Part shown: positions 3,078 through 27,411 of the stretch, piece after piece | Position numbering within the stretch: position 1 is the first letter of the stretch | How the letters are laid out: every line of letters begins with the position of its first letter | DNA from: a plasmid | Sequence record: NZ_CP115547.1 | DNA: 29,894 bases | Reading direction: 5' to 3' (one strand) | Made by a program: the position numbers and the translations under genes | Notes under the pieces: model-generated | Database searches by the model: none | Told to the model about the DNA's origin: nothing | Seen by the model: the letters and a program-made list of their open reading frames with translations, nothing else

Positions 3078-3561
3078 TGGTAAGTCTTTAAGAATAACTT
3101 GTCATATAAAACATATAAAACATGTAGAACAAAAGATTTAAAAGATGAATTCTTATATAAAGTGTTTACTAAGAAGAGATATTAGATTTTATTTTGATTC
3201 ATAATGACAAATATGTTTTTGAAGTAAAAAAGCAAAAACTTGGAAAATATGGGTACAAACCTTATTTATAGGATACCAATTATGACTTTTATTATTTTTG
3301 TTATGATATCTTGATAAGAATGTATATTTATTGTGTCATTTAAAATGATAGTTGATTTTAGTTTGGATTTATTGTATGCTAATTATTATTAGTAGTGCTA
3401 TTCATTTTAGACTATCTAATTTGTGAACGCCATTAGCAGCTTTTAGAGCTTGATTAAGTATTCTTTTAAGAGAGTATTTAATGAAGCTCTAAATTTTTAT
3501 CTGCAAGTTTAATAAATCGATATTTTATAGAATTATTTTTGATTAAAAACGTTTTATAAAG

Positions 3562-3590
3562 TTGACAAAAACTAATATTTAGTGTACTAT
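3562..3590 (+). promoter_or_regulatory. sigma70-like promoter (TTGACA-17-TACTAT) driving the RecT-like gene
   Basis: TTGACA at 3562..3567, a 17-nt spacer, then TACTAT at 3585..3590. The predicted start is ~3597, which places the conserved leader at about +3. Confidence 0.4.
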
Positions 3591-3600
3591 TTTATTTAGT

Positions 3601-3617
3601 AATTCACAAATTAGGAG
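3601..3617 (+). promoter_or_regulatory. Conserved leader AATTCACAAATTAGGAG, copy 2, before the RecT-like gene
   Basis: Exact repeat of 83..99. A partial inverted core CTAATTTGTGAA lies at 3416..3427. Confidence 0.6.
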
Positions 3618-7649: not shown

Positions 7650-8528
7650 CTAACCCTCAATATCAATAATTAATCTATTTGTAATATCAAAAACAAGTAA
7701 CTGTGATGGTTCTACGTTTATGTCTTTATTTAAATTACTCTCAAAGTCACTAATACTTGAAATATTTGTAGTTGTGTCATCTTTAGTTACTGCGTATATT
7801 TTCATACTTTTAATACCCTTAATTTCATTAACAGGAGCTGTAAAGTCTTGGTATTCAAAGTTAATACCCATCCCTGAGTAATTATTTGTAATAATTCTGT
7901 TGTAAATATCTCTTATTTGTTTATCGATGTTAAGGTAAGTATGATTTTTGATGTCTAGAGTATACTTAACTTTAAGATAAACATATTTTTTCTTACCTAA
8001 AGTAACGTTGTATACTTTTTTTTGATTTAGTTCATTGCTGCCATCAATTTCAAGCTCACCTTCAAGAATGGTACCACTAGGAATAGATGTATAAAGAGTA
8101 TTGTAAAGCTTAGCTTTAAAGAGCGAGTCCTTAATTTGATCTTTACTCTCATTAAGAAGTGATTCATTTAAGATTAGGTATATTTTAACTTTACCAGCTT
8201 GGCTTATAAGGTTAACATACTCAACTTTATCTAAGCTAAGTAGCGCTTTTATCATACCAGGATGAGTAATGCTATTTGAAGTTATGTGTTTTTGAATACT
8301 ACCGAAGAATTCACCACCAGGTTGCATCCTGTCAAAGAATAAGTTAAGTTCATTAATGATTTGCTCTTCAACAATTGAGAGTGATGTTGCAATAATATTA
8401 TAAACTGAGGATGGATCATCATTTATTATAATATTATACATTTGCATAAGGTATTCTCTTTTAATGTCTATAATGCTTTTAATATTTTGTTTTAAGAAAC
8501 CAAAATCAGGATCAAATATAATACTCAT
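7650..8528 (-). CDS. Baseplate J-like protein (292 aa)
   Basis: Size and position in P2-like order (V W J I H); 4-nt overlap with the upstream gene. Confidence 0.4.
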   Translation of the reverse strand: MSIIFDPDFGFLKQNIKSIIDIKREYLMQMYNIIINDDPSSVYNIIATSLSIVEEQIINELNLFFDRMQPGGEFFGSIQKHITSNSITHPGMIKALLSLDKVEYVNLISQAGKVKIYLILNESLLNESKDQIKDSLFKAKLYNTLYTSIPSGTILEGELEIDGSNELNQKKVYNVTLGKKKYVYLKVKYTLDIKNHTYLNIDKQIRDIYNRIITNNYSGMGINFEYQDFTAPVNEIKGIKSMKIYAVTKDDTTTNISSISDFESNLNKDINVEPSQLLVFDITNRLIIDIEG

Positions 8529-19467: not shown

Positions 19468-20145
19468 TTAAGCGGTTTTTTGGTTTTTAAGATTATAAAA
19501 CTGTTCTCGTCTTAACTTGTAAGCATTAACAATAGCAATATTAAGCTCAGTAAAGTTATTTGGACTAAAATTAGGATCAAGTATTGATAATTCTTCATTT
19601 GATAAGTTAAGTTTAATATCACTCTTAGAATTGATGGTATTAGCTTGTATTCTTTTCTTTATATTTACTTTAGCAAGATTAACAAGTTGTTCAAGCACCT
19701 CTCCATCTAAATGCTGTGTGTCTCGTACTTTAGCAATAGCGTAAATATCATCAGCTGGTACGTATTTTCTAACAAGCTCTCTACGTTGTGCTTGCATTAT
19801 ATCTTTTAGTGAGTATCCCTTAGCAAGAAGTGTGTCTTTATTAAAATGTGCACTTAAATGCTTACTTGCCAAAGTATCAATCTCATTAATACGAGTAGCT
19901 TCAAGTAATAATTTCTGATCTTGTTCTTCCCTTGCTTGTGCATCTGCAAGTTCACGTGAGATCCTTTCATTAATACTTAACTGTTTTGTAGAAGAATCTT
20001 GTGTCTTTGATTCTTTATATGCCATGTATTCTTCATAGTCTTTTAAACTTAAAGTAACACTCTCTAAGTTATTACTAAGCTCTCCTGTGTTTGTATTAGT
20101 AGTATCTTTACTCTCTTGTGTACTCGCCTCTATATCTTGATTCAT
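19468..20145 (-). CDS. Putative scaffolding protein (225 aa, acidic coiled-coil)
   Basis: Glu/Gln-rich helical protein lying between the portal-like gene and the capsid-region genes. Confidence 0.3.
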   Translation of the reverse strand: MNQDIEASTQESKDTTNTNTGELSNNLESVTLSLKDYEEYMAYKESKTQDSSTKQLSINERISRELADAQAREEQDQKLLLEATRINEIDTLASKHLSAHFNKDTLLAKGYSLKDIMQAQRRELVRKYVPADDIYAIAKVRDTQHLDGEVLEQLVNLAKVNIKKRIQANTINSKSDIKLNLSNEELSILDPNFSPNNFTELNIAIVNAYKLRREQFYNLKNQKTA

Positions 20146-20156
20146 AATCTCTCCTT

Positions 20157-21362
20157 TTAATTTTCATAAAAAAATAAAGCAGATCTTAACGCGTTAAGAT
20201 CTGTTTTATTTAAATAATTACTTGTTTCTAATTCCTTATATTTACGTGTTAATTCTATGAGTTTAAAGTCTCGCTCAATTTTTTCTTCTTCACTAAGTAT
20301 ATGCAGTGAATTAAACCTCATATCTAAGTGGTAATGCTTGTTTAATTTGCTATTAATAGCAACCTCTAACTTTTCTTGTACACTCTTTAAAAAGTCATAG
20401 TAATTACTTCTATCACCCTTACCATCACTACCCAGTCCCTTAACTTGTTCATTAAAGCTTCGTGTTAATGGCTCTTTTGTATCAGCACCTATTTTTGCTT
20501 TTACTAATGCTAAGGCTTCCTTAAGGTAGTTCATATCATACTTTATGACTTCCATTGAAGCATCCGTTTCACAGCTATAAAAAATCCCATTATTATCTAA
20601 ATTAGATTTAAGTCTTGCTAGCTCACTTACTAATTCATCATCGGTATTACTTATCGAAGTGTCATTATTCTCATTTTTAGACTTAGTGCTAGTAAAGAAT
20701 TCTTTAAAGAAATTACCTCTATTCTTACTCTCTTTTGACATAGCAGCAGTGGAAAGTGCATCTTTAATATGTGAGAGTGATTCGTCTTTGTAAAATAAAA
20801 AATTATGGGTTTCTATTCTCTTCTCTATCTCTTGATAGATCTTTTCTAGTAAATACACATCAAGAAGAAAGCTTTCACTGTAACATGGACTATACGCCCC
20901 AAGAATATAATCATAATTAGAGTATACGATTAACCTGCTTTTGTGTATTTTTAAGGTAGTAAACCCTGAAGAACTTATATCTTTAGCTTCACTTTTCAAG
21001 TAATAATTTATGTGACTAGACTCTGGGCCAAGGTCTTGTACCTTAGAATAATCTAGATACATAAATCCTATGGGCAGTTCACTATTAACTTCCAAGTGCA
21101 AATCACCTTTCTGGTCTGCAGTTTTAACTAAAATATACCCAACGCCATTAAACCTACAACTAATAATGCACTGCATGAGTGATTCTTTGAGCTCTAGCTT
21201 AAGTTTATCTAATTCTTCACACATAGATGTAACAGAAGAAGACGTACTTTGCAAACTAATTCCATTCTTGAGCACGTCTTCTGCTACATTCTCTATATAA
21301 TTTCTAAAAAATATTGAGTACTTGTATAAGTCTCTTGCATTTATTTTAAATCTTAAACTCAT
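20157..21362 (-). CDS. Putative portal protein (401 aa)
   Basis: Size and position downstream of the terminase large subunit in the head module. Confidence 0.4.
   Translation of the reverse strand: MSLRFKINARDLYKYSIFFRNYIENVAEDVLKNGISLQSTSSSVTSMCEELDKLKLELKESLMQCIISCRFNGVGYILVKTADQKGDLHLEVNSELPIGFMYLDYSKVQDLGPESSHINYYLKSEAKDISSSGFTTLKIHKSRLIVYSNYDYILGAYSPCYSESFLLDVYLLEKIYQEIEKRIETHNFLFYKDESLSHIKDALSTAAMSKESKNRGNFFKEFFTSTKSKNENNDTSISNTDDELVSELARLKSNLDNNGIFYSCETDASMEVIKYDMNYLKEALALVKAKIGADTKEPLTRSFNEQVKGLGSDGKGDRSNYYDFLKSVQEKLEVAINSKLNKHYHLDMRFNSLHILSEEEKIERDFKLIELTRKYKELETSNYLNKTDLNALRSALFFYEN
20173..20210 (-). terminator. 38-bp near-perfect palindrome (core CAGATCTTAACGCGTTAAGATCTG) plus U-run: candidate intra-operon terminator/attenuator
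   Basis: 38 nt with a single mismatch to its own reverse complement. On the - strand it is followed by TTTTTATGAAAAT. It lies inside the last 15 codons of the portal-like gene, 25 nt before the next gene's RBS. Confidence 0.4.
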
Positions 21363-21487: not shown

Positions 21488-22042
21488 TTACTTATTTAAT
21501 ATTGAATACACTATTGGGATTAGTGTTAATAACGTACCTACAAATAATGTAATTACAGTACCAAACATCCAATAATGTAATTTAGATGAACTTTCAAGTT
21601 TTGAAGTAATCTTAATAAGTTGACTATTAAGCTCCATCTTATTAATTTCCATATCCTTTCTTACAAGAGCAACTTCATTACTTACAGATGCGATATCAGA
21701 TTTTAAGCCCGCTTCTATTTTCTCAATTTTATTATCAAGATCTCTAATATCAGCTTTTAAACCAGCATCTACCTTTTCAATCTCAAATTTTAAATTTGAT
21801 TCAACTTTTTCAATATCAGCTTTTAATTCATTTCTAACGTTATCAATTTTATTATTTAAGCTATCTTGAACTTTTTCAAGCTTAATGTCAAAGTTTTCTT
21901 TAAGGTACTCAATATCTTTATGAGTAAGCTCATTTTTATAATAGCGGTAAGCGAGGTCCTCAGCAATCTCCTGATTAATGCCCGCTTTAATAAGCTCGGA
22001 CAGTACCATTTGTCTTGTAATAACTGGTTGTGGAAGTCCCAT
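21488..22042 (-). CDS. bdr: Bdr-family (Borrelia direct repeat) membrane-anchored protein
   Basis: Bdr-like conserved N-terminus (PVITRQMVLSELIKAGINQEIAEDLAYRYYKNELTHKDIEYLKENF), central ~11-aa repeats containing KID/KAD tripeptides, and a C-terminal hydrophobic tail (WMFGTVITLFVGTLLTLIPIVYSIL). Confidence 0.65.
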   Translation of the reverse strand: MGLPQPVITRQMVLSELIKAGINQEIAEDLAYRYYKNELTHKDIEYLKENFDIKLEKVQDSLNNKIDNVRNELKADIEKVESNLKFEIEKVDAGLKADIRDLDNKIEKIEAGLKSDIASVSNEVALVRKDMEINKMELNSQLIKITSKLESSSKLHYWMFGTVITLFVGTLLTLIPIVYSILNK

Positions 22043-25751: not shown

Positions 25752-25930
25752 CTATTATTTTTGATAAAATACTTTAAGGTAAAACAATTATTATTTTTTC
25801 ACCGTATTTTCTATCCATTTATAAGCAACAAATACCCAAAGTCGATAAACCTGGTATTTATTGCTTTAAAAAAGTTATTCGTAAATTTTAGTTATATTTA
25901 TTTTTGCTAAAATATGTTATAATGCAATTG

Positions 25931-26020
25931 ATAATATTGTGATAATTTTGAAAAAAACTCATATACCAAAAATATATGATTACCAATAAGAGCACAAGGG
26001 GAGTGCTCTTATTTATTTTT
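25931..26020 (+). ncRNA. Candidate small RNA unit 1: extended -10 promoter (TGtTATAAT, 25915..25923) to an intrinsic terminator (25987..26020)
   Basis: Promoter TTTTTGCTAAAATATGTTATAAT. The terminator is TAAGAGCAC-AAGGGGA-GTGCTCTTA followed by TTTATTTTT. There is no credible ORF between them. Confidence 0.3.
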
Positions 26021-26317
26021 AAAGAGTAAAAATAGTTTACAATATAATTTTTTTTTGATAAAAAAATTAGCATATTTTAATATGCATATATAACCATAAT
26101 TAAACAAATAATTAAGTGCAAATCTTAGATATTTGTTTAATTTATTTTGATAATTTAATGGTATAATAAGCTTTGACTTTAAAACTTAAATAAAAATTTC
26201 TTATTTTTACAAGTATTGCTTACAAAGACACTTAAGTTATTTAGGTGTCTTATAAGCACATTTAAAAACTATCAAAAACACTTCAAATAATTACTATTTT
26301 TTGCTAAAATATTATTA

Positions 26318-26400
26318 ACATCATGTTTTGTGTTTTTGTATTATTTGAATTAAATAGTATCTTTAACAGATTTAAAGGGTATCTATTTGATACCCTTTAG
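26318..26400 (+). ncRNA. Candidate small RNA unit 2: TGcTAAAAT promoter (26302..26310) to an 11-bp stem hairpin (26373..26399)
   Basis: Upstream box AACTATCAAAAACA at 26267..26280, promoter-like TTTTTTGCTAAAATATTATTA, hairpin TAAAGGGTATC-TATTT-GATACCCTTTA; no clear U-run. Confidence 0.25.
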
Positions 26401-26475
26401 GTATTCTTAATTACTTCTAACTATCAAAAACAGATTGCAATAATTATCTTTTTTTGCTAATATAATATTATTAGT

Positions 26476-26572
26476 AGCAAATTACTAATTTTGAACCTTT
26501 AACTTCATTATATTTAATTAATATTTATAATAAGAATAAATACCCAATCTGGTTTTGGGTATTTATTTTCAA
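26476..26572 (+). ncRNA. Candidate small RNA unit 3: TTGCTAATATAAT promoter (26455..26468) to a bidirectional terminator hairpin (26533..26570)
   Basis: A second copy of the AACTATCAAAAACA box at 26420..26433, and a ~55-bp direct repeat of unit 2's promoter region at about 80% identity. The hairpin AAATACCCAA-TCTGGTT-TTGGGTATTT is followed by ATTTTC and also lies 20 nt after the Dam gene stop on the - strand. Confidence 0.25.
26533..26570. terminator. Bidirectional stem-loop terminator ending the - strand Dam operon (and + strand unit 3)
   Basis: A 10 to 15-bp stem with a 7-nt loop, flanked by T-rich sequence on both strands. Confidence 0.45.
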
Positions 26573-26589
26573 ATACCTTACCTGCTAAA

Positions 26590-27411
26590 CTAAGTAATGT
26601 AATTACTAAACATTTCAAGTTGAACATAATGATTCTTTTTAATATCAATATTTGATTTATTAGTTTTGTATGATGTCCCTAGTATCTCATACTTAGTATG
26701 CCCAAACCTACTAGCTACACCAGTTGAACGAGCAATGTAATTAACGTAAAGATTATGTTTAAATAAAAGCTCTAATACTTCTGAGTCATTAAATTCACTT
26801 ATTGCAAACTGCCAATCATACTTCTTCATCTCTATAATTAAAGTTTCAAGAGAATCCAAATCCCAACCCTTATTATCATCTAATCTACCCTTAGAAATTG
26901 AATAGGGAGGATCAAGGTATACAAATGTTGAGGATACCTTATCTCTTTTTGACAAAACACTTAAAAAATTAAAGATGTCACGAGAAGTAAAGACCGCACA
27001 TTCAATCATTTCTTTAATTTTAGATTTATAAGTTCTAATCATATCCATAAATGCTCTTTTTGCATTACTTCTGCGCAAACCTATAGTTGAACTACATGTA
27101 GCATAAATAGAATATAGACTTCTTAAAACCATGTACTCTATTTTATCTTGATTCTCATTTATGATCCTATCATAAATAATAGCTTCTCTTATACGTTTGT
27201 AAAGCAATGCAGGATCTCGCCTTAGAATATAAAAAAACTTATATATAAACTTAGAATTATCATTAAGGATATTATAACGAGCTAACGGTTTTGCAAAAAA
27301 TATAGAGCCTGTACCAAAAAATCCTTCTATATATAAAGTATGTCTAGGAAAAAGATTTATAATTCTTTCTCTATACCTATACTTATCTCCTTCTCTCCTT
27401 AATAGTTTCAA
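26590..27411 (-). CDS. Dam-family (class D12) DNA N6-adenine methyltransferase, orphan
   Basis: Motif I EGFFGTGSIFF and motif IV VYLDPPY in alpha-group order; no adjacent restriction endonuclease-like ORF. Confidence 0.8.
   Translation of the reverse strand: MKLLRREGDKYRYRERIINLFPRHTLYIEGFFGTGSIFFAKPLARYNILNDNSKFIYKFFYILRRDPALLYKRIREAIIYDRIINENQDKIEYMVLRSLYSIYATCSSTIGLRRSNAKRAFMDMIRTYKSKIKEMIECAVFTSRDIFNFLSVLSKRDKVSSTFVYLDPPYSISKGRLDDNKGWDLDSLETLIIEMKKYDWQFAISEFNDSEVLELLFKHNLYVNYIARSTGVASRFGHTKYEILGTSYKTNKSNIDIKKNHYVQLEMFSNYIT

Follow-up and report, generated by a model that had tools for sequence, protein, structure and literature searches.

A lineage-restricted palindrome at the 3' end of a Borrelia prophage portal gene and its possible origin by template switching

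Template switching makes quasipalindromes, that is, imperfect inverted repeats, more perfect (PMC7202029); it can create perfect stems in one event, and the pattern it leaves mimics compensatory changes (PMC8794818). Hairpins of another well-described kind, intrinsic transcription terminators, have in Borrelia burgdorferi an average stem of ~7 bp with 5 U and 3 A, and of the 994 3' ends mapped inside open reading frames (ORFs) in that species, 151 carry intrinsic-terminator scores (PMC10319736). Here we analyze a near-perfect palindrome in the last codons of the portal gene on a plasmid of the record NZ_CP115547.1, of which a stretch of 29,894 nucleotides (the window) was studied. Judged from its sequence, the window belongs to a cp30/cp32-like prophage plasmid of an Asian-type relapsing-fever spirochaete (B. 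miyamotoi): a 2-kb stretch around the palindrome matches B. miyamotoi plasmids with 94-97% identity, and plasmids of this type are known in B. miyamotoi strain Izh-4 (PMC6945570). The palindrome is real, non-random, derived and restricted to one lineage. On balance, it is probably a recent template-switch product in a dispensable C-terminal tail of the portal protein, whose resemblance to a terminator would be incidental and whose effect would be at most leaky pausing or termination.

The palindrome and its departure from chance

The portal gene and the parts of the palindrome are as follows.

20157..21362, minus strand: portal gene, 401 amino acids (Pfam Phage_portal_3, E = 6.5e-55; RefSeq homologues are named 'phage portal protein')
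20172..20211, no strand: 40-bp palindrome with zero spacer and 19 of 20 pairs, from the repeat finder; arms 20172-20191 and 20192-20211, 20 nt each, 95% complementary
20182..20185, no strand: first GATC site, within AGATCT in the left arm; absent from the palindromic allele of European lp66 plasmids
20198..20201, no strand: second GATC site, in the right arm, the mirror of the self-complementary first
20189..20194, no strand: central ACGCGT, the only one in the window (CGCG occurs 3 times); read on the mRNA strand, it contains the rare Ala codon GCG

A sequence-only reading of this DNA had described a near-perfect palindrome of 38 bp that differs from its reverse complement at one base. Near-perfect it is, with a length of 40 bp by the repeat finder, and the departure from symmetry is one mismatched pair (20179/20204), A.C on the mRNA strand and G.T on the plus strand. 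The two GATC sites reported around a central ACGCGT are present, with starts at 20182 and 20198 around 20189, and the placement within the 3' end of a portal-like gene is also correct: the palindrome lies within the last 18 codons of the Phage_portal_3 ORF, encoding ...KTDLNALRSALFFYEN* exactly as that reading gave it. Codons 384-397 form the palindrome, and the Pfam portal domain stops earlier, at residue 370. The core had been called GC-rich for a replicon of ~28% GC, a description that fits the central 24 nt (~42%) and not the palindrome as a whole (~30%, in a window of 29.1% GC).

To evaluate whether such a structure could arise from composition or from the encoded protein, we compared it with 200 dinucleotide-preserving shuffles and with synonymous recodings of the peptide LNKTDLNALRSALFFY, in which codons were resampled by the plasmid's own codon usage. 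The palindrome is the top short-range inverted repeat of the window, with a score of 16 against a maximum of 13 in the shuffles (0/200 reach 16), and only ~1e-4 of the recodings score as well. Because neither shuffling nor recoding readily reaches its score, the palindrome is neither a chance event nor a by-product of the protein sequence. The codon at its axis is itself unusual, GCG accounting for 3% of Ala codons on the plasmid.

Distribution of the palindromic alleles and their proposed origin by template switching

We compared portal 3' ends at 32 loci from Lyme-group and other Borrelia genomes, in 17 selected plasmid records and in the protein tails of further species. An exact copy of the 58-nt stretch is present in 29 PLSDB records, every one from Asian-type B. 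miyamotoi (cp30 plasmids, lp70 and plasmids of 15-19 kb), with a one-codon variant (ACA to GAA) in two more and a related palindrome in two European lp66 records. The lp66 allele reads ...GCA GAA CTT AAC GCG TTA AGC TCT GCT... and is palindromic at 19/20 pairs with no GATC (GAAC...AGCT in its place). All three palindromic alleles have 19/20 pairs, each with its own different single mismatch, and two of the three mismatches are A.C on the mRNA strand. Between the Asian and lp66 palindromes, 3 of 40 positions are different, a divergence similar to that of the flanking sequence (lp66 is 94.0% identical over the 2-kb query).

Outside these records the palindrome is missing. It is absent from European cp30-5, cp30-9, cp29-1 and lp92 and from the remnant second copy on Asian lp70, as it is from American B. 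miyamotoi, B. nietonii, B. turicatae, B. coriaceae, B. persica, the reptile-associated strain RT1S and all Lyme cp32s, and no palindromic allele appears among protein tails from other relapsing-fever species. The sequence-only reading had named absence from homologous genes as a mark of a lineage-specific accident, and this is largely what we observe: even paralogues 96% identical over 2.5 kb lack the palindrome. Where measured, arm complementarity is mostly 10-11/20 in the non-palindromic alleles (7/20 in one), compared with 19/20 in the palindromic ones. Nor do the non-palindromic alleles have a substitute hairpin before the U-run; their folds range from -2 to -8 kcal/mol and are placed elsewhere. 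A hairpin common to the genus was considered and rejected: some Lyme cp32s have a weak AGCTCC...GGAGCT stem in the corresponding position, but RNAalifold on 13 sequences gave -4.9 kcal/mol with negligible covariation. A scan of IMG/VR with a conserved 18-mer upstream of the palindrome returned 52 metagenomic or viral contigs, which were judged unrelated without inspection and were not used.

The differences between alleles are both clustered and directional. Relative to European cp30-5 (96.3% identical over 2,560 columns), 11 differences fall inside 22 nt (20178-20199), flanked by 41 nt below and 169 nt above with no difference at all (binomial P ~7e-7). When the nearest non-palindromic allele is used for comparison, 8 of the 9 differing positions change from unpaired to a Watson-Crick pair and none in reverse; over all comparisons the range is 8/9 to 12/14, again with 0 in the opposite direction. 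A run of six altered bases, TCTGCT, exactly matches the reverse complement of AGCAGA, which lies in the opposite arm of the lp66 allele. Ancestral coding (N-K-A/T-E/D-L) survives in the 5' arm, and it is the 3' arm that has been rewritten (R-x-K to R/S-S-A). Because outgroups set the polarity, the non-palindromic tail ...EL(H/D/N)(A/T/V)LRxKLFFYE can be taken as the ancestral one, and the rare GCG at the axis is what copying of the opposite arm would give. Such clustered, pairing-directed changes match the textbook footprint of quasipalindrome-associated template switching.

The sequence of events that we propose would begin with a pre-existing imperfect inverted repeat, at which the polymerase would have briefly copied the opposite arm during replication. 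One or a few such switches would have rewritten ~20 nt in the dispensable portal tail in one branch of the B. miyamotoi cp30 plasmids, raising arm complementarity from ~11/20 to 19-20/20 and changing the tail from ...LR(E/T/L)KLFFYEN to ...L(R/S)SALFFYEN. The new stem would then have met the conserved codons UUA UUU UUU UAU, so that the transcript would gain a hairpin of -14.6 kcal/mol followed by a U-run, and the most to be expected of this hairpin in the late operon is leaky pausing or termination within the gene, or stabilisation of the 3' end. From allele comparison we infer both the mechanism and the weakness or absence of function; we found no evidence that the effect of the hairpin, the GATC pair or the DNA palindrome is a selected function.

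Several observations weigh against this proposal. No single template switch from any sampled non-palindromic allele gives the palindrome exactly: replacing the 3' arm with the reverse complement of sampled ancestral 5' arms leaves 4-6 residual differences, mostly at the axis and in two polymorphic 5'-arm codons. An ancestor that combined GCA (locus L093) with GAG (locus L037) would account for the outer 13 nt exactly. Three axis changes (GAC ACA to AAC GCG) stay unexplained, and would therefore need an unsampled ancestor or intermediate, a further event running the opposite way, or point mutations. In addition, one pair has changed on both sides, apparently from G:C to T:A in the Asian allele and to A.C in lp66, a pattern that selection for pairing fits equally; the directional gain of pairing as a whole is equally expected from selection on a hairpin. 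Among the Asian strains, the palindrome is present in every intact portal gene seen with its C-terminal module, a pattern that a sweep could explain. Finally, a real terminator effect in B. miyamotoi is possible, and a partial one is plausible by analogy, since terminator-like 3' ends within ORFs are common in B. burgdorferi (PMC10319736).

As a whole, the portal gene is a mosaic. In several Asian cp30 plasmids, identity to the window is 98-100% as far as ~20346, below which they switch to another C-terminal module (...VKYFSLKMHFGSL...LFIKIGEE) and other downstream sequence; this switch implies a recombination breakpoint ~135 nt upstream of the palindrome. Differences from the 96%-identical European paralogue are densely clustered in just one other place, a hypervariable, indel-rich stretch of the portal gene at 20631-20790. 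Truncated remnants of the portal 3' end occur on European lp92, on Asian lp70 (8013-8084) and on a 15.5-kb plasmid; two of the remnants run through a short DUF1357 fragment into blyB-family genes. All are relics of deletions in cp30-derived DNA.

Terminator, methylation site and other alternatives

The RNA hairpin and the start of the next gene comprise the following features.

20180..20203, minus strand: core RNA stem-loop CAGAUCUUAA-CGCG-UUAAGAUCUG, 10 bp with a 4-nt loop and 3 G-C pairs by the pattern scan's count
20165..20179, minus strand: U-rich tract CUUUAUUUUUUUAUG, codons Ala-Leu-Phe-Phe-Tyr, directly 3' of the core stem
19468..20156, minus strand: DUF1357 gene (E = 4.5e-67; ATG at 20145), the downstream cistron of the same operon
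20151-20156, minus strand: ribosome-binding site AAGGAG of the DUF1357 gene, directly after the portal stop codon and outside the hairpin

The sequence-only reading took the palindrome for a strong intrinsic terminator. The U-run that it saw on the minus strand is there, with the core stem leading straight into CUUUAUUUUUUUAUG, and an A-tract lies upstream of the stem on the mRNA strand. Past the A.C mismatch, the core stem extends by 6-7 A-U pairs to 20172-20211, giving an extended stem of 17-18 bp. A terminator pattern scan flags the hairpin, the plus strand is equally terminator-like, with the tail UUUUAUUUAAAU, and the 101-nt RNA context of the hairpin folds with z = -2.66 relative to shuffles. 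The geometry is thus that of a terminator. The word 'strong' does not hold, the energies being moderate (-9.8 kcal/mol for the core stem and -14.6 kcal/mol for the extended stem), and neither position nor conservation agrees with the claim: the hairpin neither closes a transcription unit nor lies in a regulated leader, but is inside the portal ORF, 13-21 nt before its stop codon, with the DUF1357 cistron starting 11 nt past that stop, and no promoter-like site was picked up by a pattern scan between the hairpin and that cistron. The codons TTA TTT TTT TAT are found in every LFFYE-type relapsing-fever allele examined, whether or not it is palindromic. Because these LFFY codons are also present in alleles that lack the hairpin, the terminator look comes from a new stem meeting an old U-run imposed by coding.

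The most serious alternative is that the hairpin was selected, as an intrinsic terminator or attenuator or as a 3'-end stabiliser within the late operon. In that role it would separate expression of the terminase-bdr-portal segment from that of the head, tail and lysis genes further along, and could be read through by translating ribosomes or by an unknown antiterminator. Its canonical stem, 4-nt loop, U-rich tail and upstream A-tract are what such a role calls for; the hairpin equals or exceeds the average B. burgdorferi terminator, in a species where terminator-like 3' ends inside ORFs are frequent (PMC10319736); and the alleles changed towards pairing, at one pair on both sides, and the palindrome has persisted in Asian and European lp66 lineages alike. 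However, the hairpin is missing, with nothing in its place, from paralogues that are nearly identical and from all other species that share this operon layout. It is also no more conserved than its flanks, and all three alleles contain a mismatch, which in two is A.C on the mRNA strand rather than a tolerated G.U. A ribosome coupled to transcription would presumably melt a stem so close to the stop codon of a translated ORF, and the stem is rich in A-U pairs, with a core of just -9.8 kcal/mol. A terminator ahead of the scaffold and capsid genes runs contrary to virion stoichiometry, with no promoter-like site found by the scan before the next gene, and an efficient terminator would starve the scaffold, capsid, tail and lysis genes, yet all ORFs downstream of the palindrome are intact. 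We therefore regard selection of the hairpin as rather unlikely, though it is the alternative that best withstands the evidence.

A bolder form joins the two explanations: a one-step template switch would have created a working bidirectional terminator that attenuates ~25 downstream head, tail and lysis genes on the Asian-type B. miyamotoi cp30, and gene conversion would have spread it among paralogous plasmids. This combination we hold to be quite improbable. If true, it would be a case of de novo 'terminator birth' that damps or domesticates a prophage.

In the Term-seq supplements for B. burgdorferi, the sole Borrelia 3'-end data set, we scanned the cp32 portal genes BB_P01, L01, S01, M01, R01 and O01. 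No 3' end is listed near the end of BB_x01, but the cp32 late genes have ~0-28 reads and are essentially silent, so this result is uninformative and not negative. An Rfam search of 19900-20500 with E up to 10 returned only generic microRNA and small-RNA hairpin matches, far under their gathering scores. A terminator discriminant calibrated on E. coli was negative for the hairpin and for the plasmid's intergenic hairpins alike, and we did not rely on it.

The paired GATC sites suggested to the sequence-only reading a methylation-sensitive site for protein binding, packaging or attenuation, on a plasmid that encodes a Dam-family methylase. The enzyme in question is the following.

26590-27411: D12-class adenine methyltransferase (Pfam D12, 47.7 bits, cutoff 22; NCBIfam Dam, 41.6 bits, cutoff 114.85)

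Its predicted class is therefore D12, as the Pfam score shows; Dam-type specificity is not implied by a score so far under the NCBIfam cutoff. The broader alternative is that the DNA palindrome is bound or cleaved by a dimeric protein in a manner sensitive to Dam methylation, as a pac-type signal, an operator, or a replication or partition element. A symmetric palindrome with two GATC sites 16 bp apart would suit such a protein, and the P1 pac site is a precedent for Dam-controlled packaging. Because the chromosomal Dam of relapsing-fever Borrelia methylates GATC (PMC4873019), and a D12-class methyltransferase is also present on the plasmid, the GATC sites of the palindrome are probably methylated; nothing singles these sites out, however. 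GATC is depleted across the window and not enriched near the palindrome (50 sites vs ~79 expected), local density is unremarkable (at most 4 per 500 bp), and a GATC pair no more than 16 nt apart occurs by chance in ~74% of random placements. GATC being self-complementary, a site in one arm of a palindrome necessarily has its mirror in the other. The European lp66 allele is palindromic with GAAC and AGCT where the GATC sites would be, and the palindrome is missing altogether from sister plasmids, whose replication, partition and packaging must work alike. The half-site has 3 matches in the window at up to 2 mismatches, two of which are the palindrome itself, against 1.9 expected by chance. As for packaging, the pac site mapped in phiBB-1 is a 377-bp intergenic region upstream of erp and not in the portal gene (PMC11008901). 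Together these results make a methylation-sensitive site very unlikely. The idea of an operator or dispersed repeat was rejected separately, since the window has no convincing further copy of either the half-site or the core. Depletion of palindromic tetramers relative to base composition extends over the whole window (GATC 50 vs 79 expected, TCGA 14 vs 79, CGCG 3 vs 13).

It is hardly credible, for the reasons given by the shuffles (0/200) and the recodings (just 1e-4), that the palindrome is a chance or coding by-product of L-N-A-L-R-S-A-L in an A+T-rich genome, or a pile of unrelated point mutations: the conserved L-x-A-L-R motif does already give CTT...TTAAG, and the ancestral alleles are quasipalindromic at 10-11/20 where a base-composition estimate gives ~6/20 by chance, but 8 of 9 differences make pairs, for which we estimate a probability of order 1e-3 or less if substitutions are independent with a 1/3 chance each, and the differences are packed into 22 nt of an otherwise identical 230-nt stretch. 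An assembly artefact is countered by palindromic alleles in more than 30 independent complete plasmid records. Equally hard to credit is a structural DNA element, either a recombinogenic cruciform or a cryptic ResT substrate resembling a replicated telomere, that would aid cp30-derived linear plasmids: zero-spacer palindromes can extrude cruciforms, the plus strand folds as single-stranded DNA at -13.1 kcal/mol (z = -5.3), and the palindrome is present on circular (cp30) and linear (lp70, lp66) plasmids, but on the linear plasmids it is internal (~29 kb of 70 kb) and not terminal, the mosaic breakpoint near 20346 is ~135 nt away, and the deletion junctions are elsewhere. A resemblance to telomeres was considered and set aside: by inspection, the axis-proximal CGTTAAGATCTG is unlike the A/T-only Borrelia telomere repeat, e.g. 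TTTATTAGTATACTAATAAA on lp54.

The surrounding genes are those of a phage late operon, with DUF603, the terminase large subunit, bdr, the portal gene, DUF1357 and three DUF228 paralogues. On relapsing-fever cp30 plasmids, bdr (here at 21488-22042, minus strand) separates the gene for the terminase large subunit from the portal gene; the B31 cp32 gene tables end with the terminase (BB_P42, BB_S45) and begin with the portal gene (BB_x01), and list no bdr in between. Many RefSeq and UniRef records in the portal family PF06381 (Phage_portal_3, formerly DUF1073) are labelled 'anti-CBASS protein Acb1 family protein', a label at odds with the portal annotation and the operon position. Elsewhere in the window, a 52-bp imperfect palindrome with zero spacer (3442-3493; 26-nt arms, 85% complementary) lies in a non-coding gap of 540 bp (3078-3617) between genes read as a partition/replication cluster and a RecT-like gene, and is a candidate plasmid maintenance or terminator element. 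A stretch of 840 bp with no long ORF (25752-26589) contains three strong hairpins (25985-26013, 26370-26402 and 26535-26567), at least two of them followed by T-rich tails, which may be convergent terminators between the integrase-like and methyltransferase genes.

Meaning and comparison with known systems

If template switching did build the palindrome, the locus offers a clean natural case of a long near-perfect hairpin made in this way within coding sequence, with ancestral and derived alleles both preserved among paralogous plasmids. It also warns against assuming that a conspicuous palindrome accompanied by a U-run and GATC sites must be regulatory. If, on the other hand, the hairpin truly terminates transcription, then a single mutational event could rewire the whole late operon of a prophage in a human pathogen, B. 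miyamotoi, whose cp30/cp32 phages mediate gene transfer.

Among described systems, intrinsic terminators, including those within B. burgdorferi ORFs, share with the palindrome a stem-loop, a U-tract directly after it and an A-tract before it; both strands of the palindrome look like terminators, and its stem and tail are at or above the average size for Borrelia (PMC10319736). Unlike them, it is embedded in a translated ORF midway along a tightly packed operon, has a stem rich in A-U pairs, and is not conserved in homologous operons. Phage pac sites, such as the Dam-regulated pac of P1, resemble it as GATC-containing DNA elements on headful-packaging prophage plasmids, but the palindrome, unlike P1 pac, has just two GATC sites, which are mirror images and are both lost in the lp66 allele. 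The pac of the cp32 prophage phiBB-1 offers the same general likeness, but it lies upstream of erp (PMC11008901), whereas the palindrome is in the portal gene, occurs as a single copy in the window and is not shared by sister plasmids.

Quasipalindrome template-switch mutations are known from the Ripley 1982 model, from the E. coli thyA hotspot studied by the Lovett lab (PMC7202029) and from the creation of RNA stems (Monttinen & Loytynoja 2022, PMC8794818). In contrast to the thyA and other quasipalindrome cases, the Borrelia event is read from comparison only, sits in a protein-coding tail where 3-5 amino acids are altered, and includes changes not all explained by one event from a sampled ancestor. 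In other respects the likeness is close: an imperfect inverted repeat becomes near-perfect, the changes form a tight multi-nucleotide cluster in which the opposite arm appears to be copied, and apparent compensatory changes would come from the same process. The palindrome is, in this sense, a new instance of a known mutational and structural type.

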